Shown: positions 403 to 37,950 of the stretch, piece by piece
Numbering within the stretch: position 1 is the first letter of the stretch
How the letters are laid out: each line of letters opens with the position of its first letter
The notes under the pieces: generated by a model
Told to the model about the DNA's origin: nothing
What the model saw: the letters and a program-made list of their open reading frames with translations, nothing else
Databases searched by the model: none
Translations under genes and position numbers: made by a program
Source: a virus
IMG/VR virus record: IMGVR_UViG_3300032004_000033
Span: 1-37,950 of that record
Direction: 5' to 3' (one strand)
DNA length: 37,950 bases

Positions 403-633
403 TCAGGAGAATGGATCGGCAGGTTTGGCGATGGAGCGCACAAACCACATGAAGCCCTGTTGCAAGTTGGTCTTGGCGAGCGCGAGCAGGCGCGGATCTA
501 CGCCTTCAATCTGGCCGATCTGCTTGAACAGCTCGCCGGCGTCGGCTTCCAGAGCCTTGATGGAGTTCATACCGTCAATCTCGGATTGGCTCAGGTCGCG
601 GTAGCCGGTGATTTTCTTGTGCTGGTTGTCCAT
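403..633 (-). CDS. 76-aa helical-hairpin protein inserted between endolysin and spanins. Possibly an Acb2-like cyclic-oligonucleotide sponge.
   Basis: ATG at 633 with GAGG about 9 nt upstream. Sequence MDNQHKKITGYRDLSQSEIDGMNSIKALEA...QQGFMWFVRSIAKP. There is no TMD. Tyr11 and Lys26 match what I recall as key Acb2 residues; this is from memory and not verified. Confidence 0.55.
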   Translation of the reverse strand: MDNQHKKITGYRDLSQSEIDGMNSIKALEADAGELFKQIGQIEGVDPRLLALAKTNLQQGFMWFVRSIAKPADPFS

Positions 634-1461: not shown

Positions 1462-1489
1462 AAAAAAAAGCCCCGCACTGTGGCGGGGC
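1462..1489 (-). terminator. Rho-independent terminator immediately upstream of the holin (tR'-like).
   Basis: Minus strand reads GCCCCGC-CACAGT-GCGGGGC followed by TTTTTTTT. Confidence 0.85.
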
Positions 1490-1520
1490 AGCGATGACGC
1501 AAGAGTCGTCGGGCTTGGGT

Positions 1521-1540
1521 GTCGGAATCCCGACTATTTC
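1521..1540 (-). promoter_or_regulatory. Late-strand element (LSE), copy E.
   Basis: Minus strand reads GAAATAGTCGGGATTCCGAC. A 5-bp stem GTCGG/CCGAC is preceded by AATA. The TAG inside it is the stop codon of ORF 1534-1797. Confidence 0.7.
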
Positions 1541-1797
1541 ACTGGCGTTCCGCCAGCAGTCACCCACAGATCGTGCAGCTCTTGGGTCATCTTGCTGATG
1601 TACTCGCCCTCGAAGCGCTCCACGTTGTACTTGCGCGCAGTGCACCACTCTTCGAACGACGGGCCTGTGCCAGACCGCAACAGCTTCTCGGCCTCGGCGG
1701 CGAGCTTTTCCGCCAGTACATGACTCCCACTATCCATGGCTCGGTTTGCTGCGTCGGATAGCTGAATGATTGCGTTTTGTTCGTCGTAAGTAAGCAT
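1534..1797 (-). CDS. Hypothetical 87-aa protein, the last gene before the late and lysis region.
   Basis: ATG at 1797 with GAGG 9 nt upstream. Sequence MLTYDEQNAIIQLSDAANRAMD... I recognise no family. Confidence 0.6.
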   Translation of the reverse strand: MLTYDEQNAIIQLSDAANRAMDSGSHVLAEKLAAEAEKLLRSGTGPSFEEWCTARKYNVERFEGEYISKMTQELHDLWVTAGGTPVK

Positions 1798-1807
1798 CGT
1801 GATTCCC

Positions 1808-2068
1808 TCATGCTTTCGAGTGATAAGCCCACCAGTCACCAACGGCGACCATGGGCAGCTTTGAACGGGCCTGGCCGGTGGCCTGGACCCAAAACAACAC
1901 AAGGCGCTCGCCCTCCGTGTAGCGAGGTTCAGCGCCCTGTTTCCAACCCAGCAACGTGCTGCGCGGGACTGCGATGGCATCGGCCACCGACTGCGGTGAG
2001 TAGCCGGCACGCGAAAGCACGGTTATCACCGTGAACCAATCCACGCGCTGTTCGGCCAGGGCGAGCAT
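1808..2068 (-). CDS. 86-aa putative HTH DNA-binding protein in the Q-equivalent position (candidate late regulator).
   Basis: ATG at 2068, directly after the stop of the upstream gene. The segment SPQSVADAIAVPRSTLLGWKQG looks like a helix-turn-helix. Confidence 0.5.
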   Translation of the reverse strand: MLALAEQRVDWFTVITVLSRAGYSPQSVADAIAVPRSTLLGWKQGAEPRYTEGERLVLFWVQATGQARSKLPMVAVGDWWAYHSKA

Positions 2069-5041: not shown

Positions 5042-5120
5042 ATTCTGCGATTAACGCAGATTTAATGCAACCAAATTCTGCGCCTATCGCTTTGCGCATA
5101 ACGCAGCAAGACCGGAAAAT
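5042..5120. promoter_or_regulatory. OR-like operator cluster with divergent promoter candidates pR and pRM.
   Basis: Operators: TCTGCGATTAACGCAGA (5044-5060), TCTGCGCCTATCGCTTT (5077-5093), TTTGCGCATAACGCAGC (5091-5107). pR on the minus strand is TTGCAT-17-CAGAAT (5070-5042). pRM is TTGCGC (5092)-17-GAAAAT (5115-5120), which places the transcription start at the cI ATG (leaderless). Confidence 0.6.
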
Positions 5121-5126
5121 TGCCCA

Positions 5127-5780
5127 ATGGATATCGGACAAATCATCAGAACTGCGCGAAAAGCCAAAAAGCTTTCGCTCGAAGAACTCGCTAACCAGGT
5201 CGGCTCGGACACTGGCAACCTTTCACGCCTGGAGCGTGGGTTGCAGAGCACGACCCCGGAAAAGCTCAAACAGATCATGTCCATCCTGGACATCAAGTTG
5301 GCCCAGCAAAGCCCGGGGTCAGGGCATCAACAAGACGCTGGAATGTCGAACGTGCAGATGGCCCTGCAACCGAGTCGCGGGCTTAAGGAATACCCTTTGA
5401 TCAGCTGGGTAATCGCCGGGGAATGGGCGGAATCGTGCGATAACTTCATGCCGGGCGATGCGGAAGCCTGGATAACGTCAACCGAGAACGCCGGGGAAAA
5501 CGGCTTTTGGCTGGATGTTCGTGGCGACTCAATGACCTGCAACGGCAACCCCAGCTTCCCCGAGGGGTCGCGCATCCTGGTGCAGCCAGAAGCCGAGTTG
5601 ATCAGCGGCAAGTACTACGTCATCAAGCTGGACACCGGAGAGAGCACCTTTAAGCAGTACGTAGAGGACGCTGGCGTCAAATACCTGCGACCTTTGAACA
5701 ATGCTTACCGTACGATCCAGCTAGATGGTGACTTCAAGGTCATCGGCCGGGTGATTGACACGAAGATGACGGGGCTATAA
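5127..5780 (+). CDS. cI: CI-like repressor (XRE HTH plus LexA/S24 autopeptidase domain).
   Basis: N-terminal HTH LSLEELANQVGSDTGNLSRLERG. C-terminal VRGDSM...KYYVIKL...FKQY...VIGRVI carries the S24 Ser/Lys signature. Confidence 0.9.
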   Translation: MDIGQIIRTARKAKKLSLEELANQVGSDTGNLSRLERGLQSTTPEKLKQIMSILDIKLAQQSPGSGHQQDAGMSNVQMALQPSRGLKEYPLISWVIAGEWAESCDNFMPGDAEAWITSTENAGENGFWLDVRGDSMTCNGNPSFPEGSRILVQPEAELISGKYYVIKLDTGESTFKQYVEDAGVKYLRPLNNAYRTIQLDGDFKVIGRVIDTKMTGL

Positions 5781-6052: not shown

Positions 6053-6069
6053 GTGCCTGATTTTTGAAA

Positions 6070-6132
6070 TCTGCGCTTGACGCAGAATAATATCTGCGCA
6101 TAATGCAATCCATGTTCTGCGATTAACGCAGA
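6070..6132 (+). promoter_or_regulatory. OL-like triple operator with embedded pL-like sigma70 promoter.
   Basis: TCTGCGCTTGACGCAGA (6070), TCTGCGCATAATGCAAT (6093), TCTGCGATTAACGCAGA (6116), with exact 23-bp phasing. Promoter is TTGACG (6077-6082)-16 nt-CATAAT (6099-6104). Confidence 0.7.
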
Positions 6133-6154
6133 TATGCAAGCCGGCGAAAGCCAA

Positions 6155-6932: not shown

Positions 6933-7156
6933 ACAAACATGACATTGCGACCGGGATGATTGATTCCCGGTTCAACCTGATAAACCTCGGTGACACGTCG
7001 GCAGCCGTTCACGCCGAAGCGTCCATGGCCGTCGAAATGGCCCACGCGCTGGGCATTATCGACAGCACCGAATATGACTACTACCGGGCTTGGCATAACC
7101 GGATTATCGGAATCCAGCATCGCCAGACCCTGGAACGTATGAGGTCGAGCGTATGA
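6929..7156 (+). CDS. Hypothetical 75-aa protein.
   Basis: ATGA overlap with the upstream stop. Sequence MNKHDIATGMIDSRF... Confidence 0.55.
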   Translation: MNKHDIATGMIDSRFNLINLGDTSAAVHAEASMAVEMAHALGIIDSTEYDYYRAWHNRIIGIQHRQTLERMRSSV

Positions 7157-7287
7157 CGATCATCTGCCGAACCGTGAGCGAACTCAGAGACGCCCTGCAC
7201 AAGCAGGGCTTTTTTCTGGTCACCGATCTACCCCGCCCCCTGCGTATTGAAGTGCGCCGGGGCATGCTGATTGCGAGGTTTGCATGA
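7153..7287 (+). CDS. Possible 44-aa ORF, translationally coupled on both sides, containing an intrinsic terminator.
   Basis: ATGA overlaps at both ends. Sequence MTIICRTVSELRDALHKQGFFLVTDLPRPLRIEVRRGMLIARFA. Confidence 0.35.
   Translation: MTIICRTVSELRDALHKQGFFLVTDLPRPLRIEVRRGMLIARFA
7192..7215 (+). terminator. Rho-independent terminator inside the early operon.
   Basis: GCCCTGC-ACAA-GCAGGGC followed by TTTTTT. Confidence 0.8.
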
Positions 7288-7847
7288 ACATTGATTGGAG
7301 CAAGGCGCCGAAAGGGGCGACGCATAAATTCAGCGATCCAACTACAAACCCTTGGCGTGATCTCTCGGGGGAAACCTGGAAGTACTGGTCGGAAGGCGAG
7401 TGGATAGACAGCGAGCTGCGCACCGATACCTTCATGAAGCGGCAGGCGCACCGCCTTACCGTAGTTGAGCCGATCGGATGGACCGGCGAAGGCCTGCCGC
7501 CTGTTGGGGCGGTGTGCGAAGTCGTCTCGCCCGGCTACAGCAATGACAGGTTCGACCGATTCATCGGCCAGACGGTAACAGTCATCGCCCACGATGTGAT
7601 CGACGCAGATCCTGTTGCTGTGTTCCGGATGCCTGTTGATGGCCAGATCGACGAGCAGGATTATCACGCGCTGGTCAAGCAGTGCTTCCGTCCCATCCGC
7701 ACGCCCGAGCAGATCGCGGCGGAAGAGCGCACCAAGACTATAGATGACATGGTCAAAGCGCTTGGCATTGATTCCCCAGGAACGGCCGATTACATCCGTT
7801 GCGGGCTGATTTACGACGCCGGATACCGCAAGCAGGTGGCGCCATGA
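7284..7847 (+). CDS. Hypothetical 187-aa protein.
   Basis: Long ORF in operon register, with ATGA coupling at both ends. Confidence 0.65.
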   Translation: MNIDWSKAPKGATHKFSDPTTNPWRDLSGETWKYWSEGEWIDSELRTDTFMKRQAHRLTVVEPIGWTGEGLPPVGAVCEVVSPGYSNDRFDRFIGQTVTVIAHDVIDADPVAVFRMPVDGQIDEQDYHALVKQCFRPIRTPEQIAAEERTKTIDDMVKALGIDSPGTADYIRCGLIYDAGYRKQVAP

Positions 7848-7963
7848 AAGCCCTTTCATGGATCCTCACCGCCGCACTGCTCATGACCATGCTGGCCTAC
7901 ACGGTGGTGAAGGATCGCTCTGGTCCCTGTCAGGCGCCGCAATTGTCCCAGGTGCTGCGATGA
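7844..7963 (+). CDS. 39-aa single-TMD peptide.
   Basis: MKALSWILTAALLMTMLAYTVVKDRSG... ATGA coupled to both neighbours. Confidence 0.45.
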   Translation: MKALSWILTAALLMTMLAYTVVKDRSGPCQAPQLSQVLR

Positions 7964-15832: not shown

Positions 15833-16069
15833 ATGCAAACCGCACGCAACGACGAGCCGGTCGAATTCATCCGGCTGCCCGAGGTAAAGAAACTGGTCGG
15901 CTTCGGCACCACCAAGATTTACGAAATGGCGAGCCAAGGCCTGTTCCCCAAGCAGGTTCCGCTGGGCGGGCGCTCCGTGGCCTGGGTCAAGTCCGAGGTT
16001 CTGCAATGGAACAGCGAGAAGCTGGCCGCTGCCCGTGGTCAGGCTTCGGACACCAGCGAATCCAAGTAA
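15833..16069 (+). CDS. xis: AlpA-family excisionase/DNA-binding protein.
   Basis: FIRLPEVKKLVGFGTTKIYEMASQGLFPKQVPLGGRSVAWVKSEV is the AlpA signature. The gene is convergent with, and overlaps, the int 3' end. Confidence 0.85.
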   Translation: MQTARNDEPVEFIRLPEVKKLVGFGTTKIYEMASQGLFPKQVPLGGRSVAWVKSEVLQWNSEKLAAARGQASDTSESK

Positions 16070-17268
16070 TCGGCCCATTCCTGCATCATCACCCGCCGCT
16101 GTTCCACGTACTCCGCGTGGTTGTAGGTCTTTCTGACCTTGCTTGAACCCGCATGCGAAAGCTGCGCCTCGATCCAATCCTCGTTGTAATCCATTTCGTT
16201 CAGGGCCGTTGAAATCGTGGCACGGATCCCGTGCCCGGTCAGCCTGCCTTCATACCCCATGCGCCTCAAAGCCACGTTGACTGTGCCGTCGCTGATTGGC
16301 TTGCTCGGGTCACTCCGACCCGCGATCAGCAGCTTGTAACGGCCAGTCATCTGGTGCACCTTGCGCACCTCCTCGACCGCCTGCCGCGACAGTGGCACCA
16401 GATACGGCGGCACCTTATCCCCTCCCTTTGCCCTAATCACCTTCTGCAATTGCTTCACCCCCTCTGCGGGGATCGTCCACAGCGCGGCGTCCAGGTCAAA
16501 CTGGGCCCACGTTGCGTGGCGTAACTCGCCCGTGCGAACCGCCGTCAGCAACAGAAGCCGGATCGCGCTTTTGGTGTAGTCCTTGATGTCGGCCGCATCA
16601 AGCGCCTGCAAGAACTCTTTGAGCTCACGCTGACGAAGCATCGGGTTGTGTTTCTCGGGCGGCTCTTTAACTGCCACGATATCCAGGTCGGCCGCCGGGT
16701 TGACCTCCAGATAGTCAGAGGCAATGGCGAAACGGAATATCTCGTTGAGCCAGGTCCGGCACTTGCGGGCAACGTTGAGCGCCCCGCGCTTCTCTATGGT
16801 TCGCAACGTCGCCAGTACATCGGCGCGCTTGACCTCGGCAATCGGGATACGTCCCAGCGCCGGCACCAGATCTTTGTCCAGGTAGAGCTGCGCCTGAACA
16901 GCGGCGCCCTTCTTGGCCTTCGCCCACCGGGGCAGCTTGAAGGCATACCACTCATTAGCCACCACCTCGAACGTTTTGATGGCGCTGGAGCTCGCCGCCC
17001 GCTTCTCTTCCCGACGGGTGGACCGTGGGTCTGTGCCCTTGGCCACCAGCGCCCGCGCCTGGTCCCGCTTCTCACGGGCTTCCTTGAGGCTGATTTCTGG
17101 ATAGGTGCCCAAGGACATGCGCGGCTGCTTGCCGTGCCAGGAGAAACGGAAGTGCCACGACTTGGTGCCGTTGGTCGTGACGAACAGGGATAGGCCCCCG
17201 CCATCGGTGATGGAGTATTCCTTGTCAGCGGGCTTGGCCTGCCGGACAGCCGTATCAGTGAGGGGCAT
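16039..17268 (-). CDS. int: Tyrosine integrase (P4-type, DUF4102 N-terminus).
   Basis: MPLTDTAVRQAKPADKEYSITDGGGLSL...WHFRF...GTYPEISLKEAREKR, then C-terminal HGIRATISTALNEM...HAGSSKVRKTYNHAEY. Confidence 0.95.
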   Translation of the reverse strand: MPLTDTAVRQAKPADKEYSITDGGGLSLFVTTNGTKSWHFRFSWHGKQPRMSLGTYPEISLKEAREKRDQARALVAKGTDPRSTRREEKRAASSSAIKTFEVVANEWYAFKLPRWAKAKKGAAVQAQLYLDKDLVPALGRIPIAEVKRADVLATLRTIEKRGALNVARKCRTWLNEIFRFAIASDYLEVNPAADLDIVAVKEPPEKHNPMLRQRELKEFLQALDAADIKDYTKSAIRLLLLTAVRTGELRHATWAQFDLDAALWTIPAEGVKQLQKVIRAKGGDKVPPYLVPLSRQAVEEVRKVHQMTGRYKLLIAGRSDPSKPISDGTVNVALRRMGYEGRLTGHGIRATISTALNEMDYNEDWIEAQLSHAGSSKVRKTYNHAEYVEQRRVMMQEWADYLDSLVSEA

Positions 17269-17327: not shown

Positions 17328-17416
17328 GGAACGCAGCGAAAGAATGCGAAACTCCACGCAACAAAAAGGCCGCGCTTAGCGGCCTATTGCTTGGGGTTTG
17401 CGGAACTCTGCGAAAC
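17328..17416. repeat. attP arm-type direct repeats (candidate integrase arm sites).
   Basis: GCGGAACGCAGCGAAAG (17328-17344) and GCGGAACTCTGCGAAAC (17400-17416), plus TGCGAAAC at 17344-17351 and 17408-17415. Confidence 0.45.
17362..17383 (-). terminator. Rho-independent terminator between the attP core and int.
   Basis: Minus strand reads GGCCGC-TAAGC-GCGGCC followed by TTTTT. Confidence 0.7.
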
Positions 17417-20486: not shown

Positions 20487-22100
20487 CTAGTATTCAACCT
20501 GCACGTCGTGCACGCCCGCATCTGGACGCCAATCGTCCCGCCGGGCCTCTGTCGGTTTCCCGACTATTCGCCCAATGCGCACGGGGGTTTGGGCGATTGC
20601 GCCGGCGCCGGAGTCGATGAAGTCATCGTCCTGATCGGTTAGTGCTGGGTTGAAGTCGCGCATCTGGTCCCAGATCGTTCGAAGAACGTCGATGTGGGCC
20701 CACAGGAAGCGCGCCGACAATGGAGGCTCGAAGGCATCGAGGATGCGTTTCTGTTTGTTGGCACTGCTGTGCTCTTCTCCTACGCCGCAGCCTGTGCCCT
20801 TCAAGGCTTGTTTCAAGATGGCCGGGGCAAACCCGCCCGGGCCGTTGGTTTCGATGATCACTCGCGGGATCTGGTATCGGATGACCAACTCGCGGATCTG
20901 GTACACCTGGCCGCCGTTGATGCGATCCCTTTCGTCAAACTCGGCGATTTCCCCTGTCAGCCCTGCCGCAACGTGCCAATAGAGTTGCCCGCGAGCATCG
21001 GTCAGCAACAGCGAAAAGGCCGAGGCGTCCGACTTGATCTTGCCCAGGGAGCAGTCCCAGTAAGCGACGGCGCCGACGATCTGCGTTGAGCCCAGGTACA
21101 TGGCTGCCGCGTTGTTGGCGTAGCGCATGGTCGGCTGTACGTCATAGGGGATGATGCGCTCGGGGTTCAAGCGAACCTCCGTGACCGGCTTCGAGTGAAG
21201 CTGATACTGCGAATCCCATTCGTTGATGGTGCGGGTTTTCTTTCGCCGCTTCTCCAGCTCTTTCAGGTCGAAACGATCAACCCAGGCGATGCCGGCATAG
21301 CAATCAATCAGCGTGCCAGGCGGCGTAAAGAACGCTATCCCCGTCTTGGTGAGCTGATAGTCCTTCCCCTGGACAAGAGCTCTTGCGTGCTTGCCGATGC
21401 CAGAGAAAATGAACTCCGGCGGGAACGGAACGTCGTAGGCATTCAGCTTGGCTTCTTCAATCCGATGCTCTTTGGCAAACATGCGGATGGTCAGGCAGTC
21501 GGCGCCCAGCGCCTCCTGCTCGTCATAGAGGCTGTCATGCGTGTGCGGTGTCCCAACGAACAGCAGCCGCGCACCAGGCACCATGATGTGGACCTGCTCA
21601 CCGAGCCTGTACCGAAGCTTCTCCCGGGCCTCTGGCGTGGCAATGTTCTTCGGCACCTCGACGTCATCGTTTTGGCATTCATCCGCCCGCGAACTGGTGA
21701 TGTTCGACATGATGCCGGAGGCCTGCATAGATGGATTTCGCTCGTCCTCGTTCCCAGGAACCCACCAAAACGCAGTGTCACCCTTCATTTTCCTGTGAGC
21801 ATCCAGCGTCAATGGATGCTTCCTGAGGATGGCTTTGGTGTCGCGACTGGTCTTGTAGGCCGTGGGGTCGGTGTCGCCCTGGTGCAGAATCCGATAGGTC
21901 GGATCGAGGTAGAACCGCCATGCGTTGTACAGCGCCAGGATGGTCGACTTACCAAACCCACGGAAACAGCGAAGCACCGCATGATCTCCACGGTGCTCAA
22001 GCCAGTGACAGGCCCTGACATGAATGTCCGGGACTTCCCACTTCATGCGCTTTGCCCATATCAGGAAAAACGCCAAAAAAGAGATGTACTTAGTGGACAT
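20487..22100 (-). CDS. terL: Terminase large subunit.
   Basis: Walker A FRGFGKST. Size and position fit (T7 gp19-like order, after the small subunit). Confidence 0.85.
   Translation of the reverse strand: MSTKYISFLAFFLIWAKRMKWEVPDIHVRACHWLEHRGDHAVLRCFRGFGKSTILALYNAWRFYLDPTYRILHQGDTDPTAYKTSRDTKAILRKHPLTLDAHRKMKGDTAFWWVPGNEDERNPSMQASGIMSNITSSRADECQNDDVEVPKNIATPEAREKLRYRLGEQVHIMVPGARLLFVGTPHTHDSLYDEQEALGADCLTIRMFAKEHRIEEAKLNAYDVPFPPEFIFSGIGKHARALVQGKDYQLTKTGIAFFTPPGTLIDCYAGIAWVDRFDLKELEKRRKKTRTINEWDSQYQLHSKPVTEVRLNPERIIPYDVQPTMRYANNAAAMYLGSTQIVGAVAYWDCSLGKIKSDASAFSLLLTDARGQLYWHVAAGLTGEIAEFDERDRINGGQVYQIRELVIRYQIPRVIIETNGPGGFAPAILKQALKGTGCGVGEEHSSANKQKRILDAFEPPLSARFLWAHIDVLRTIWDQMRDFNPALTDQDDDFIDSGAGAIAQTPVRIGRIVGKPTEARRDDWRPDAGVHDVQVEY
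20551..20570 (-). promoter_or_regulatory. Late-strand element (LSE), copy D, inside the terL 3' coding region.
   Basis: Minus strand reads CGAATAGTCGGGAAACCGAC, translated as R-I-V-G-K-P-T. It lies 92 nt upstream of the tail-fibre start. Confidence 0.7.
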
Positions 22101-24962: not shown

Positions 24963-25008
24963 GGGCTTGCTCCTGTTTGGATGGGAGCAAGCCTATGGGG
25001 CGGGAGTA

Positions 25009-25028
25009 GACGGTTTCCCGACTATTTA
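25009..25028 (-). promoter_or_regulatory. Late-strand element (LSE), copy C.
   Basis: Minus strand reads TAAATAGTCGGGAAACCGTC (one stem mismatch). The TAA is the stop of ORF 25026-26930. It lies 47 nt upstream of ATG 24962. Confidence 0.7.
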
Positions 25029-32687: not shown

Positions 32688-32716
32688 ATAAAAAGACCGG
32701 GGCACATGGCCCCGGT
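32688..32716 (-). terminator. Rho-independent terminator after the capsid/decoration genes (T-phi-like position).
   Basis: Minus strand reads ACCGGGGC-CATGT-GCCCCGGT followed by CTTTTTAT. Confidence 0.8.
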
Positions 32717-33315: not shown

Positions 33316-34179
33316 TTACGACTCAAGGGCTGCGATTTCCACAACCTTTTCTTCTTCCACCCGCACGGAGCCGATGGACATTTTGCCGTAGATGCGCACG
33401 TTGAAGCCCTTGCCCGGATCCTCACCAACTTTGGTGGTGATATCGGCGCCCTTGCCCAGCGTCACGCCGGATTTGGCCCAGGCGTAGAGCAGGCGGGTGT
33501 TGCCGGACAGCGGGGTGCGCTCGGACGGAATCCAGGTGAAGCCCATCCACTTGCCCTCAACATCGCCGTCTTCGAGGAACTTGCCAGCCAGATAGTCAGC
33601 GCTGGTCAAGGTCGCGTCGGCGAGGATGTCGGCAGCAGCCGAGGCGCTGTAGGTGATGAACAGCTCCTCGCCGTTGTGGTTGTCGGCTTCGTTGCGGCGG
33701 AACAGCTTGCGGGCCTGGATGATCTTGGCCTTGGTCAAGCCAGTGCCGCCGACGGCGATCTTCTGCGCGGTCGGCAGGATGATGTTGCCGGTGGTGGCGC
33801 GGGAGTTGCCGCCCATGGACGCGATGATTACGTCGTCCTTGGCACGGTTGAGCGAGGACACCATCGCCTTGACGTAGTCCGAAGTCGGGTCAACCAACAT
33901 GCGGATCTTGTCCTGGTCGTCGAGCATGTCGCCGTCTTCCCAGTCGAACAGGTCCACAAAGCGGGTGCTGTGTGGTTGATCGTTGATCGGGGTGTCGCCA
34001 TGGCGAGTGGTGCGGCGCTTGGCAGTACGTTGGCCAAGGCGGTTGATCGACTTGGACATACCGACAATGTTCGGCTCGATGGTCACGCGAGTTTCCAGGC
34101 GCGAGGTCATCTGTTGCGCCAGGTGGCGGAAGTTGTCGCCGAACTGCTGAACAAAAGCTTCAGTGATTTGAAAGGACAT
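33316..34179 (-). CDS. Major capsid protein (HK97 fold, N4-gp56-like family).
   Basis: ATG at 34179 with GGAG 8 nt upstream (the track's 34311 start is upstream read-through). MSFQITEAFVQQFGDNF...DTPINDQPHSTRFVDLFDWEDGDMLDDQDKIRMLVDPTSDY... Confidence 0.8.
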   Translation of the reverse strand: MSFQITEAFVQQFGDNFRHLAQQMTSRLETRVTIEPNIVGMSKSINRLGQRTAKRRTTRHGDTPINDQPHSTRFVDLFDWEDGDMLDDQDKIRMLVDPTSDYVKAMVSSLNRAKDDVIIASMGGNSRATTGNIILPTAQKIAVGGTGLTKAKIIQARKLFRRNEADNHNGEELFITYSASAAADILADATLTSADYLAGKFLEDGDVEGKWMGFTWIPSERTPLSGNTRLLYAWAKSGVTLGKGADITTKVGEDPGKGFNVRIYGKMSIGSVRVEEEKVVEIAALES

Positions 34180-34346
34180 TTGATGCACTCCAATGCAGAT
34201 ATGGGATTGCCTGCCGGTTGTCCGCATCGCGGGCCGGGATTCCTGGCGTGCATCGGCTTTGCTGCGCCTGGGGCGTTCCGGTTGTCTGCATGCCATCGCA
34301 GGCCGGCCCATTGCTGGGATGCCTGCGATGTTTGTGCATGGGGGGT

Positions 34347-34366
34347 GTCGGTTTCCCGACTATTTG
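34347..34366 (-). promoter_or_regulatory. Late-strand element (LSE), copy B.
   Basis: Minus strand reads CAAATAGTCGGGAAACCGAC. It lies 11 nt after the scaffold stop and 168 nt upstream of the capsid ATG. Confidence 0.7.
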
Positions 34367-37699: not shown

Positions 37700-37756
37700 T
37701 GTGCTGGCCTCGGGTTGGTTGTTGATCAACGAGGGCCAGCATCAAGTGGGATGGCT

Positions 37757-37775
37757 GTCGGGTTCCCGACTATTT
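37757..37775 (-). promoter_or_regulatory. Late-strand element (LSE), copy A.
   Basis: Minus strand reads AAATAGTCGGGAACCCGAC. The TAG is the Rz stop codon. It lies 58 nt upstream of ATG 37699. Confidence 0.7.
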
Positions 37776-37950
37776 GCGAGGGGTGCAGGCGGTGCTCACG
37801 TAGTCCTGAAGCGCGGTCAGGGCGAGGATGGCGTCGTCGCCGTCGTTGGCTGTGGCGACAATTCGTCCAGCAGACGCTGGGTCAAGTTCGGCTCTCGCTT
37901 CTGCATGGTCCACGCTGGCGGCGGGGCTGGCGGCTCGCACTGCTGGGCAG
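37770..37950 (-). CDS. Rz: C-terminal part of the Rz i-spanin (the same gene as 1-390, seen through the terminal repeat).
   Basis: ...ILALTALQDYVSTACTPRK, stop TAG at 37770-37772. Confidence 0.85.
   Translation of the reverse strand, partial: CPAVRAASPAASVDHAEARAELDPASAGRIVATANDGDDAILALTALQDYVSTACTPRK
37817..37950 (-). CDS. Rz1: C-terminal part of the embedded Rz1 o-spanin.
   Basis: ...PTTATTPSSP, stop TGA at 37817-37819. Confidence 0.8.
   Translation of the reverse strand, partial: AQQCEPPAPPPAWTMQKREPNLTQRLLDELSPQPTTATTPSSP
37824..37950. repeat. Right copy of the 127-bp terminal direct repeat.
   Basis: Identical to 1-127. Confidence 0.95.

Follow-up and report, generated by a model that had tools for sequence, protein, structure and literature searches.

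A conserved repeat as the likely upstream half of five late promoters, and a terminator confined to the lysis promoter, in a temperate Pseudomonas-type podovirus

Activator-dependent phage late promoters include those of Mu C (Plys, PI, PP and Pmom) and of P2 Ogr, and lambda cII has comparable targets in pRE, pI and paQ. The C proteins of restriction-modification systems, which are small dimeric Xre-type helix-turn-helix (HTH) proteins, activate transcription from dyad sites overlapping the −35 region. In this work, we analysed the 37,950 nt of the IMG/VR virus record IMGVR_UViG_3300032004_000033 (positions 1 to 37,950, the whole of which is called the window below), focusing on a repeated 20-bp element named LSE and on an intrinsic terminator, t_lys, that separates one LSE copy from the holin gene. 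A preliminary description of this DNA had likened that arrangement to the pR'-tR' late switch of lambda. A second precedent is the small DNA-binding antiterminator AlpA of Pseudomonas aeruginosa, which acts from a promoter-embedded site and for which terminators located 26-54 nt from the start precede lysis genes (PMC7969949). The AlpA site, GGGACG-N5-GGTA, is flanked by a real −35 and the −10 and located at about −25 to −14, and promoter-proximal terminators at +26 and +54 are experimentally functional in Pseudomonas (PMC7969949).

The LSE consists of an A-rich AAATA followed by the dyad GTCGG-N4-CCGAC. Five copies are present in the window, all on the minus strand (1517-1539, 20547-20569, 25005-25027, 34343-34365 and 37753-37775), for a chance expectation of zero (100 shuffles). 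Copy E, next to the holin gene, reads GAAATAGTCGGGATTCCGAC (1540-1521, minus strand) and comprises GAAATA and the dyad core GTCGGGATTCCGAC (1534-1521). A scan with the exact pattern found the element in more than 118 viral-contig stretches, and its sites in these relatives correspond to the five places of the window, i.e. the passage from the early to the lysis genes, that from Rz to the portal module, the interval between the scaffold and capsid genes, the region ahead of the gene of an 847-residue internal virion protein, and the 3' end of the terminase gene, with the fibre gene following. We aligned 69 non-redundant instances centred on the dyad, between GTCGGGA and AACCGAC, and used a wider set of 261 distinct instances for counts. 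Positions fixed by the search pattern do not count as evidence of conservation, but the core is kept beyond that bias, because loci fetched solely by similarity to the HTH protein described below show the same core. Independent support comes from several types of lysis cassettes, from a relative with a relocated cassette (L043) and from the Yersinia phage YeP5. A scan of genome contigs with a pattern of 14 bases was overwhelmed by chance hits from unrelated taxa and was left out of the statistics; only a few of its matches, in Pseudomonas and Burkholderiaceae, look real. A literature search for the motif string yielded unrelated primer matches only.

In the non-redundant set, just two positions 3' of the LSE are informative, namely +22, where 53 of 69 instances have an A, and +26, where 56 of 69 have a T; all others carry less than 0.35 bits. 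A hexamer of the form nAnnnT is found at +21 to +26 from the LSE centre in 216 of the 261 instances, and in all 38 copies that precede lysis genes. The five copies of the window all fit, with GACTCT for copy E (1502-1507, minus strand), GATGCT for copy A, AAACAT for copy B, TAGGCT for copy C and GACGAT for copy D, and diverged or AT-richer relatives have GATACT, GATAAT, CAAAAT, CACAAT or TAAAAT at the same spacing. As such a hexamer at constant spacing typifies a sigma-70 −10 element (A-11 and T-7, both present in copy E), the LSE appears to be the upstream half of late promoters. In copy E, transcription is predicted to start at 1494-1496 (A1495, minus strand), 7 nt after the hexamer, in a CATCG that is kept across relatives. 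Since the −10 element lies 13 nt downstream of the LSE, the latter would be located upstream of the start, at about −44 to −26 (−45 to −26 for the 20 nt of copy E in the lysis promoter). The 13-bp spacer has no conserved sequence, and the bases 16-18 bp upstream of the −10, GGGAAAC, are part of the LSE, with no usable −35 hexamer. A consensus scan similarly detected no sigma-70 −35/−10 pair across the late region or near copy E. Consensus sequences for sigma-54, RpoH, AlgU and other extracytoplasmic-function factors, and FliA were compared by eye with the LSE and the downstream sequence, and none suits all five copies. The pattern of conservation thus makes the LSE, most likely, the activator-binding, upstream half of late promoters read by the host RNA polymerase.

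The predicted promoters other than that of copy E, all on the minus strand, serve the virion genes. Copy A (37738-37776; core 37770-37757, −10 37743-37738) would be the promoter of the gp152/portal module and has no terminator. Copy B (34328-34366; core 34360-34347, −10 34333-34328) would serve the major capsid gene, which has a 142-nt structured leader, and copy C (24990-25028; core 25022-25009, GTCGGGAAACCGTC; −10 24995-24990) the gene of the 847-residue protein. Copy D (20532-20570; core 20564-20551, −10 20537-20532) lies within the 3' end of the large terminase open reading frame (ORF) and would serve the tail fibre genes. The starts predicted for copies A, B, C and D are at about 37731, 34321, 24983 and 20525, respectively.

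Strong inverted repeats follow copies A (37740-37703) and C (24993-24964; hairpin −17.5 kcal/mol) on the minus strand, and they are kept in relatives with compensatory changes. Their upstream arms overlap the predicted −10 or discriminator, and their downstream arms cover the Shine-Dalgarno sequence of the next gene. Because the upstream arm precedes the predicted start, these hairpins could form in read-through RNA only, which suggests that such RNA is translationally silent at A and C and that promoter-started RNA is not. For the same reason, we dropped the idea that the hairpins following each LSE are 5' leader structures or terminators. Among the copies of the window, only E has a complete hairpin with a T tract within its predicted transcript.

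The organization around copy E is, on the minus strand, the LSE, a 31-nt spacer (1520-1490), t_lys (1489-1462), a Shine-Dalgarno sequence (GGAGG, 1455-1451) and the holin gene (the two together 1165-1455) with its ATG at 1443. All these elements were found where the preliminary description had placed them, as was the TAG stop codon (1536-1534) of the small ORF g87 (1534-1797, minus strand) inside the LSE. The Lys-stop codons of g87 (AAA TAG) form the 5' part of copy E; the ORF has no family match in Pfam, PHROG or NCBIfam, and it is missing in relatives in which the HTH gene directly abuts the LSE. t_lys has the stem-loop GCCCCGC-CACAGT-GCGGGGC (1489-1470) followed by eight Ts (1469-1462), and corresponds to +7 to +34 of the predicted RNA. 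With its seven G-C pairs out of seven, 6-nt loop and T8 tract, it is the top match of the terminator scan (hairpin −14.5 kcal/mol) and the sole strong minus-strand terminator from the immunity region to the lysis genes.

A hairpin and a T tract follow the predicted start in all 38 LSE copies that precede lysis genes, which we grouped by their best downstream BLAST match (holin 29, Rz 7, endolysin 2), and in none of the 160 copies that precede capsid, gp152, portal, fibre or 847-residue protein genes. The terminator persists before several unrelated first genes of the lysis cassette. Its hairpin starts at +7, +8, +10 or +13 in relatives, and its stem shows compensatory variants (GCCCAGC/GCTGGGC and GACCCCGC/GCGGGGTT) with retention of the T tract. 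The proposal that LSE, spacer, terminator and holin gene form a conserved and functional unit therefore gains support from these relatives. In L043, whose lysis cassette is found midway through the late region, the cassette still has its own LSE and terminator; therefore, the terminator belongs to the lysis promoter and is not simply the end of the early operon. The terminated RNA is predicted to be ~31-34 nt long, shorter than the 40-60 nt anticipated in the preliminary description. We also looked for a trans-acting RNA with complementarity to the 5' half of t_lys, and the t_lys site itself was the sole match.

The candidate activator of the LSE promoters is HTH86, an 86-residue Xre-like HTH protein (1808-2068, minus strand) that matches phrog_16553 (1e-19). 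It has no Pfam family at E<0.01 and no NCBIfam family, and its best sequence match in the PDB has E=0.038. Its AlphaFold2 model (predicted local distance difference test score of 89) is a five-helix Xre-type HTH with a lambda-repressor-like fold, and the top Foldseek matches are C.BclI, C.AhdI, HipB, SinR and P22 c2 (probability 0.99, E ~0.05). HTH86 homologues are numerous in Pseudomonas prophages, and strains of P. chlororaphis, P. fluorescens and P. syringae are among those that encode one. We collected 80 loci by protein similarity alone, with identities down to 41%. In 74 of them, the LSE core is located at or just after the HTH86 gene on the same strand, often overlapping the Lys-stop codons, and one further locus has LSE copies only further downstream.

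YeP5 provides a distant comparison. By tblastx, its similarity to the window is confined to the virion module, the integrase and the HTH86 gene, so that HTH86 is, the integrase aside, the sole shared non-structural gene. The replication, immunity and lysis genes of YeP5 are entirely different from those of the window. The HTH86 gene of YeP5 is located at the border between early and late genes, and LSE-like promoters precede its first late gene, its capsid gene and its lysis genes. This co-occurrence and the predicted fold make it likely that HTH86 binds the LSE and activates the LSE promoters. As its gene is next to last in the early rightward operon, HTH86 would be made late in the early phase.

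We consider it probable, on balance, that the late genes are controlled by five host sigma-70 promoters in which the LSE replaces the −35, with HTH86 as their activator and t_lys as both attenuator and insulator. In this model, the host sigma-70 RNA polymerase would transcribe the late genes from five promoters of the same design, all turned on by binding of HTH86, encoded late in the early operon, to the LSE. Copy E would be the lysis promoter, with a start at ~1495, 6 nt before the strong terminator. Because of this position, every RNA bound for the holin gene would meet the terminator, whether it starts at promoter E or upstream. t_lys would insulate the lethal lysis cassette from early or upstream read-through, and it would let through only a fraction of the promoter E transcripts, without regulation of the termination itself, such that holin and endolysin would be low or delayed relative to the virion proteins. 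The terminator t_MCP, described below, would likewise lower the expression of the tail genes. Thus, t_lys probably throttles lysis gene expression rather than serving as a lambda-style master switch.

Several points weigh against this model. Five of the 80 HTH86 homologues (L288-L291 and L308) have no nearby LSE. Many of the relatives are close, and the counts given above overstate the number of independent events. At the lysis gene LSE of YeP5, the G+C hairpin that follows lacks a clean T tract, and t_lys-type terminators may therefore be limited to the Pseudomonas-type clade. For a terminator, a hairpin that is complete at +26 is unusually near the start. Were insulation the only aim, a terminator upstream of the LSE would be enough, and the fixed position 3' of the start could equally mean that the polymerase started at promoter E is specifically helped past t_lys.

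At L288-L291, which encode HTH86 proteins 57-61% identical to that of the window with the same recognition helix, no LSE was found, and three GTCAC direct repeats with a spacing of ~10-11 bp follow the gene. They may represent a different site architecture for the HTH86 family.

The possibility of specific help leads to a first alternative, promoter-loaded antitermination, in which HTH86 or one of the small proteins g87, g76 or g106 would bind the LSE, join the polymerase and read through t_lys, making the terminator an on/off gate for lysis. The terminator is indeed always 3' of the predicted start and never upstream of the LSE in the 38 lysis copies. The order small DNA-binding protein, promoter, terminator, lysis genes is also that of Q-pR'-tR'-S and of AlpA-PalpB-tB-alpBCDE, and AlpA, a small non-Q DNA-binding protein, performs this function in Pseudomonas even at a terminator 26 nt from the start (PMC7969949). 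However, a terminator that would have to be overcome is missing at four of the five LSE promoters. As they lack a −35 box, the LSE promoters need activation in any case. No Q homologue or antiterminator family was recognized in Pfam, PHROG or NCBIfam for the ORFs at 1534-2618 (the preliminary description had likewise recognized no Q homologue), and the predicted fold of HTH86 is Xre-like rather than winged-helix. The LSE, at about −44 to −26, does not occupy the place of the Q and AlpA sites, between −35 and −10. The beginning of the predicted transcript, ATCGCTGCCCCGCC, with a C at −1, was read for a sigma-dependent pause element, but none of the hexamers starting at −1 to +4 is nAnnnT.

A conserved terminator inside the late region bears on the same question. 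t_MCP (32688-32716, minus strand), a strong intrinsic terminator, lies between the capsid operon and the tail tube A gene, downstream of LSE copy B, and is kept in 63 of 65 relatives, YeP5 included. It would be pointless there if the polymerase were terminator-resistant. The next LSE after t_MCP is only found at the gene of the 847-residue protein; the tail and internal protein genes would therefore be expressed by partial read-through. Conservation of t_MCP within the late unit thus argues, indirectly, that the polymerase started at an LSE remains sensitive to terminators, which speaks against a processive modification of the Q or AlpA type and for t_lys as a fixed attenuator and insulator.

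In view of these data, we regard promoter-loaded antitermination as rather unlikely. Of the antitermination or late-activation device in which the preliminary description had placed the LSE, it is late activation that the −10 signature favours, with antitermination kept as a lower-rated rival. The expected dependence of the virion genes on read-through of t_lys is not borne out, given the four further terminator-free LSE promoters downstream, and the likeness to pR'-tR' fails most of its defining features, with five promoters, no −35, no pause element and a terminator inside the late region. We are also doubtful of a related proposal, in which HTH86, or else the product of a small ORF next to it, would be a promoter-loaded factor of a new kind with two functions, activation of the −35-less LSE promoters and gating of lysis by overcoming the terminator at +7. 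If true, this would amount to a transcriptional lysis clock that parallels Q and AlpA in its mechanism and uses an unrelated fold, in widespread T7-like temperate phages without their own RNA polymerase.

A second alternative, also unlikely, is that t_lys is a pure insulator that blocks early or upstream RNA only, with the polymerase from promoter E largely ignoring the nearby hairpin, which at the 5' end may stabilize the mRNA. The absence of any other strong minus-strand terminator ahead of the lysis genes and the start of the hairpin at just 6-12 nt from the predicted 5' end are consistent with this idea, and the hairpins of copies A and C, which cover Shine-Dalgarno sequences in read-through RNA only, suggest a general silencing of such RNA. 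A pure insulator could nevertheless sit upstream of the LSE, as is the case before the capsid LSE in relatives, and it never does so at the lysis genes. Moreover, terminators 26 nt from the start do work in Pseudomonas (PMC7969949), and there is no known exemption for a terminator at +7 to +34. Attenuation combined with insulation, as proposed above, remains our preferred role for t_lys.

A third reading takes the LSE as RNA, namely a boxB/nut- or put-like hairpin, an RNase processing site or an mRNA stabilizer on long late transcripts, and we find it very improbable. It is true that every copy can fold into a 5-bp stem with a loop of GAAA, that most copies are intergenic and that all are on the coding strand. 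However, the stem changes in 18 core variants all break a pair (G-A, T-T, T-C or A-C) and none is compensatory, and the loop varies (AAA, ATT, AAC, ATC or AAT). As every change in the stem breaks a pair and the loop is free to vary, the hairpin is not the selected feature. The RNA reading also leaves the fixed-distance −10 signature unexplained, copy D lies inside a coding region, and the LSE has no Rfam match. In diverged relatives and YeP5, an intrinsic terminator is found directly upstream of the capsid LSE (a terminator-then-promoter layout), and it would leave the LSE untranscribed. The preliminary description had the LSE as a transcribed hairpin ahead of the terminator, a view hardly compatible with a −10 located 13 nt downstream of it. 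Judged by these substitutions, the LSE is a DNA site and not an RNA hairpin, and we have corrected the annotation of the repeat. Finally, it is barely conceivable that the LSE, like the class III promoters of T7, serves a single-subunit RNA polymerase encoded by the phage. In favour of this idea, the virion module is T7-like, LSE copies occur at sites of the T7 phi9, phi10 and phi17 types and the capsid operon ends with a Tphi-like terminator downstream. However, no phage RNA polymerase gene was found (no Pfam RNA_pol match among the large ORFs, no DxDGD motif, and, apart from the virion proteins, no ORF of the right size), HTVC010P-type relatives reportedly have no viral RNA polymerase (PMC10504331), and conservation ends 26 bp before the inferred start, does not span it and is followed by a sigma-70-type −10.

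The window is a circular assembly with a G+C content of 60%, in which positions 1-127 are identical to 37824-37950. This 127-nt overlap supports the earlier statement that the lysis and virion genes continue across the circular junction. The phage is a temperate Pseudomonas-type podovirus with lambda-like early genes and a T7/HTVC010P-like virion module, and without a phage RNA polymerase. No close relative turned up among isolated phages by megablast, and the closest capsid proteins are those of the Yersinia phages YeP4-6 and of Pelagibacter HTVC010P-type phages. The minus strand, from ~5000 down to 1, carries the lambda-like early operon, which codes, in order, for a Cro-like HTH protein, a CII-like regulator, O-like and P-like replication proteins, RusA, three small unknown ORFs and the 86-residue HTH protein. 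The lysis cassette that follows comprises the holin gene (1443-1165), the endolysin gene, an Acb2-like gene and an Rz-type spanin gene that spans the circular junction; database matches bear out the holin, endolysin and Rz-type spanin identities. The virion module encodes portal, scaffold, major capsid, tail tube A and B, internal virion protein, terminase and fibre. The terminator t_end (17362-17385, minus strand) closes the late region before the integrase gene (16039-17268). Besides t_lys, t_MCP and t_end are the two other strong minus-strand terminators of the window. A whole-window Rfam search in E-value mode and a tRNA scan returned nothing relevant.

Additional features were noted in the lysis cassette. 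The holin gene has a second in-frame start, ATG 1416, nine codons after ATG 1443 and with its own Shine-Dalgarno sequence (AGGAG, 1428-1424); both starts are kept in relatives, and the arrangement resembles the S107/S105 antiholin/holin pair of lambda. The Acb2/Tad1-like gene (403-633, minus strand; Pfam PF24729, 8e-19), located between the endolysin and Rz genes, would code for an anti-CBASS cyclic-nucleotide sponge.

In the late region, the true start of the capsid gene is ATG 34179, which gives a 142-nt 5' leader from the predicted start (34179-34321, minus strand). The leader harbours two copies of a structured motif (34306-34278 and 34237-34214; NGG-C-[hairpin]-GAYAMCC-N'), in which 9 of 15 predicted pairs show compensatory changes among 20 diverse relatives, Yersinia-phage-like ones included. 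The motif has no Rfam match and is a candidate for a new cis-regulatory RNA for capsid translation. A second LSE-like sequence in the capsid leader of YeP5 was rejected as a promoter, as it is part of this conserved RNA motif.

In the immunity region, the 19-bp palindrome TTCTGCGATTAACGCAGAT occurs in three copies (5043-5061, 6069-6087 and 6115-6133, plus strand) that flank the gene of a CI-like repressor (5127-5780, plus strand). They are probably the operators of divergent early promoters. The sole consensus sigma-70 promoters of the window overlap the right-hand pair of these palindromes. A minus-strand ORF at 7104-7859 (251 residues, arginine-rich, no family) is antisense to a 187-residue ORF (7284-7847, plus strand) that matches phrog_3483, and it is probably spurious.

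Phages that combine T7/HTVC010P-like virions with the lack of a phage polymerase are widely found among Pseudomonas prophages and Yersinia phages and in metagenomes. With regard to the timing of their late expression, a study of relatives notes only the missing polymerase (PMC10504331). The present analysis proposes a concrete late regulon, with a small HTH protein, a 20-bp site that replaces the −35 at five promoters, and two conserved internal terminators, whose apparent role is to adjust the outputs of the lysis, capsid and tail genes relative to one another. A lysis-specific terminator 6 nt after the start would be a compact way of keeping a lethal cassette quiet, and the arrangement could be a ready-made part for tight phage-derived control of expression in Pseudomonas.

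Among known systems, the pR'-tR' region of lambda resembles the copy E locus in its succession of regulator gene, promoter, intrinsic terminator and holin gene, and in the short terminated RNA that is predicted here. In lambda, however, a single constitutive promoter with both −35 and −10 serves the whole late operon, whereas the window has five −35-less LSE promoters, virion genes that are not functionally behind t_lys and a conserved terminator inside the late region. AlpA shares with the window the Pseudomonas host, a small DNA-binding regulator, for which there is a candidate here, and an intrinsic terminator between the promoter and the lysis genes. In contrast with the AlpA site, which lies between −35 and −10, the LSE replaces the −35, and most LSE promoters have no terminator. 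HTH86 is a predicted five-helix Xre-like protein and AlpA a predicted winged helix, and no match to the AlpA Pfam family was found for HTH86.

The organization of the late units recalls that of T7 class III, with promoters before the portal and capsid, internal protein and fibre genes, and t_MCP has a counterpart in Tphi, a leaky terminator right after the capsid operon that sets the capsid-to-tail stoichiometry. Unlike T7, the window has no phage RNA polymerase, and its predicted promoters, which belong to the host sigma-70 type, would need an accessory site. C.BclI, C.AhdI and C.Esp1396I of restriction-modification systems are the best structural matches to the HTH86 model, but this likeness is at the level of the fold only (Foldseek E ~0.05, 12-17% identity), and the DNA site and the biological context differ.

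The design of the promoters is reminiscent of Mu C, P2 Ogr and cII, with several promoters that have one conserved site in place of a usable −35 and retain a sigma-70 −10. The TTGC-N6-TTGC site of cII, like the 14-bp site of the window, straddles the −35 position, and in Mu, as here for the candidate activator, the gene lies at the end of the early or middle operon directly before the first late promoter, that of lysis (C before Plys). HTH86 has no sequence relationship with Mor/C, Ogr or cII, as judged by the lack of a Pfam match. The window also differs from these systems in that its site is an inverted repeat centred near −32.5, and that one of its promoters has a built-in terminator at +7.

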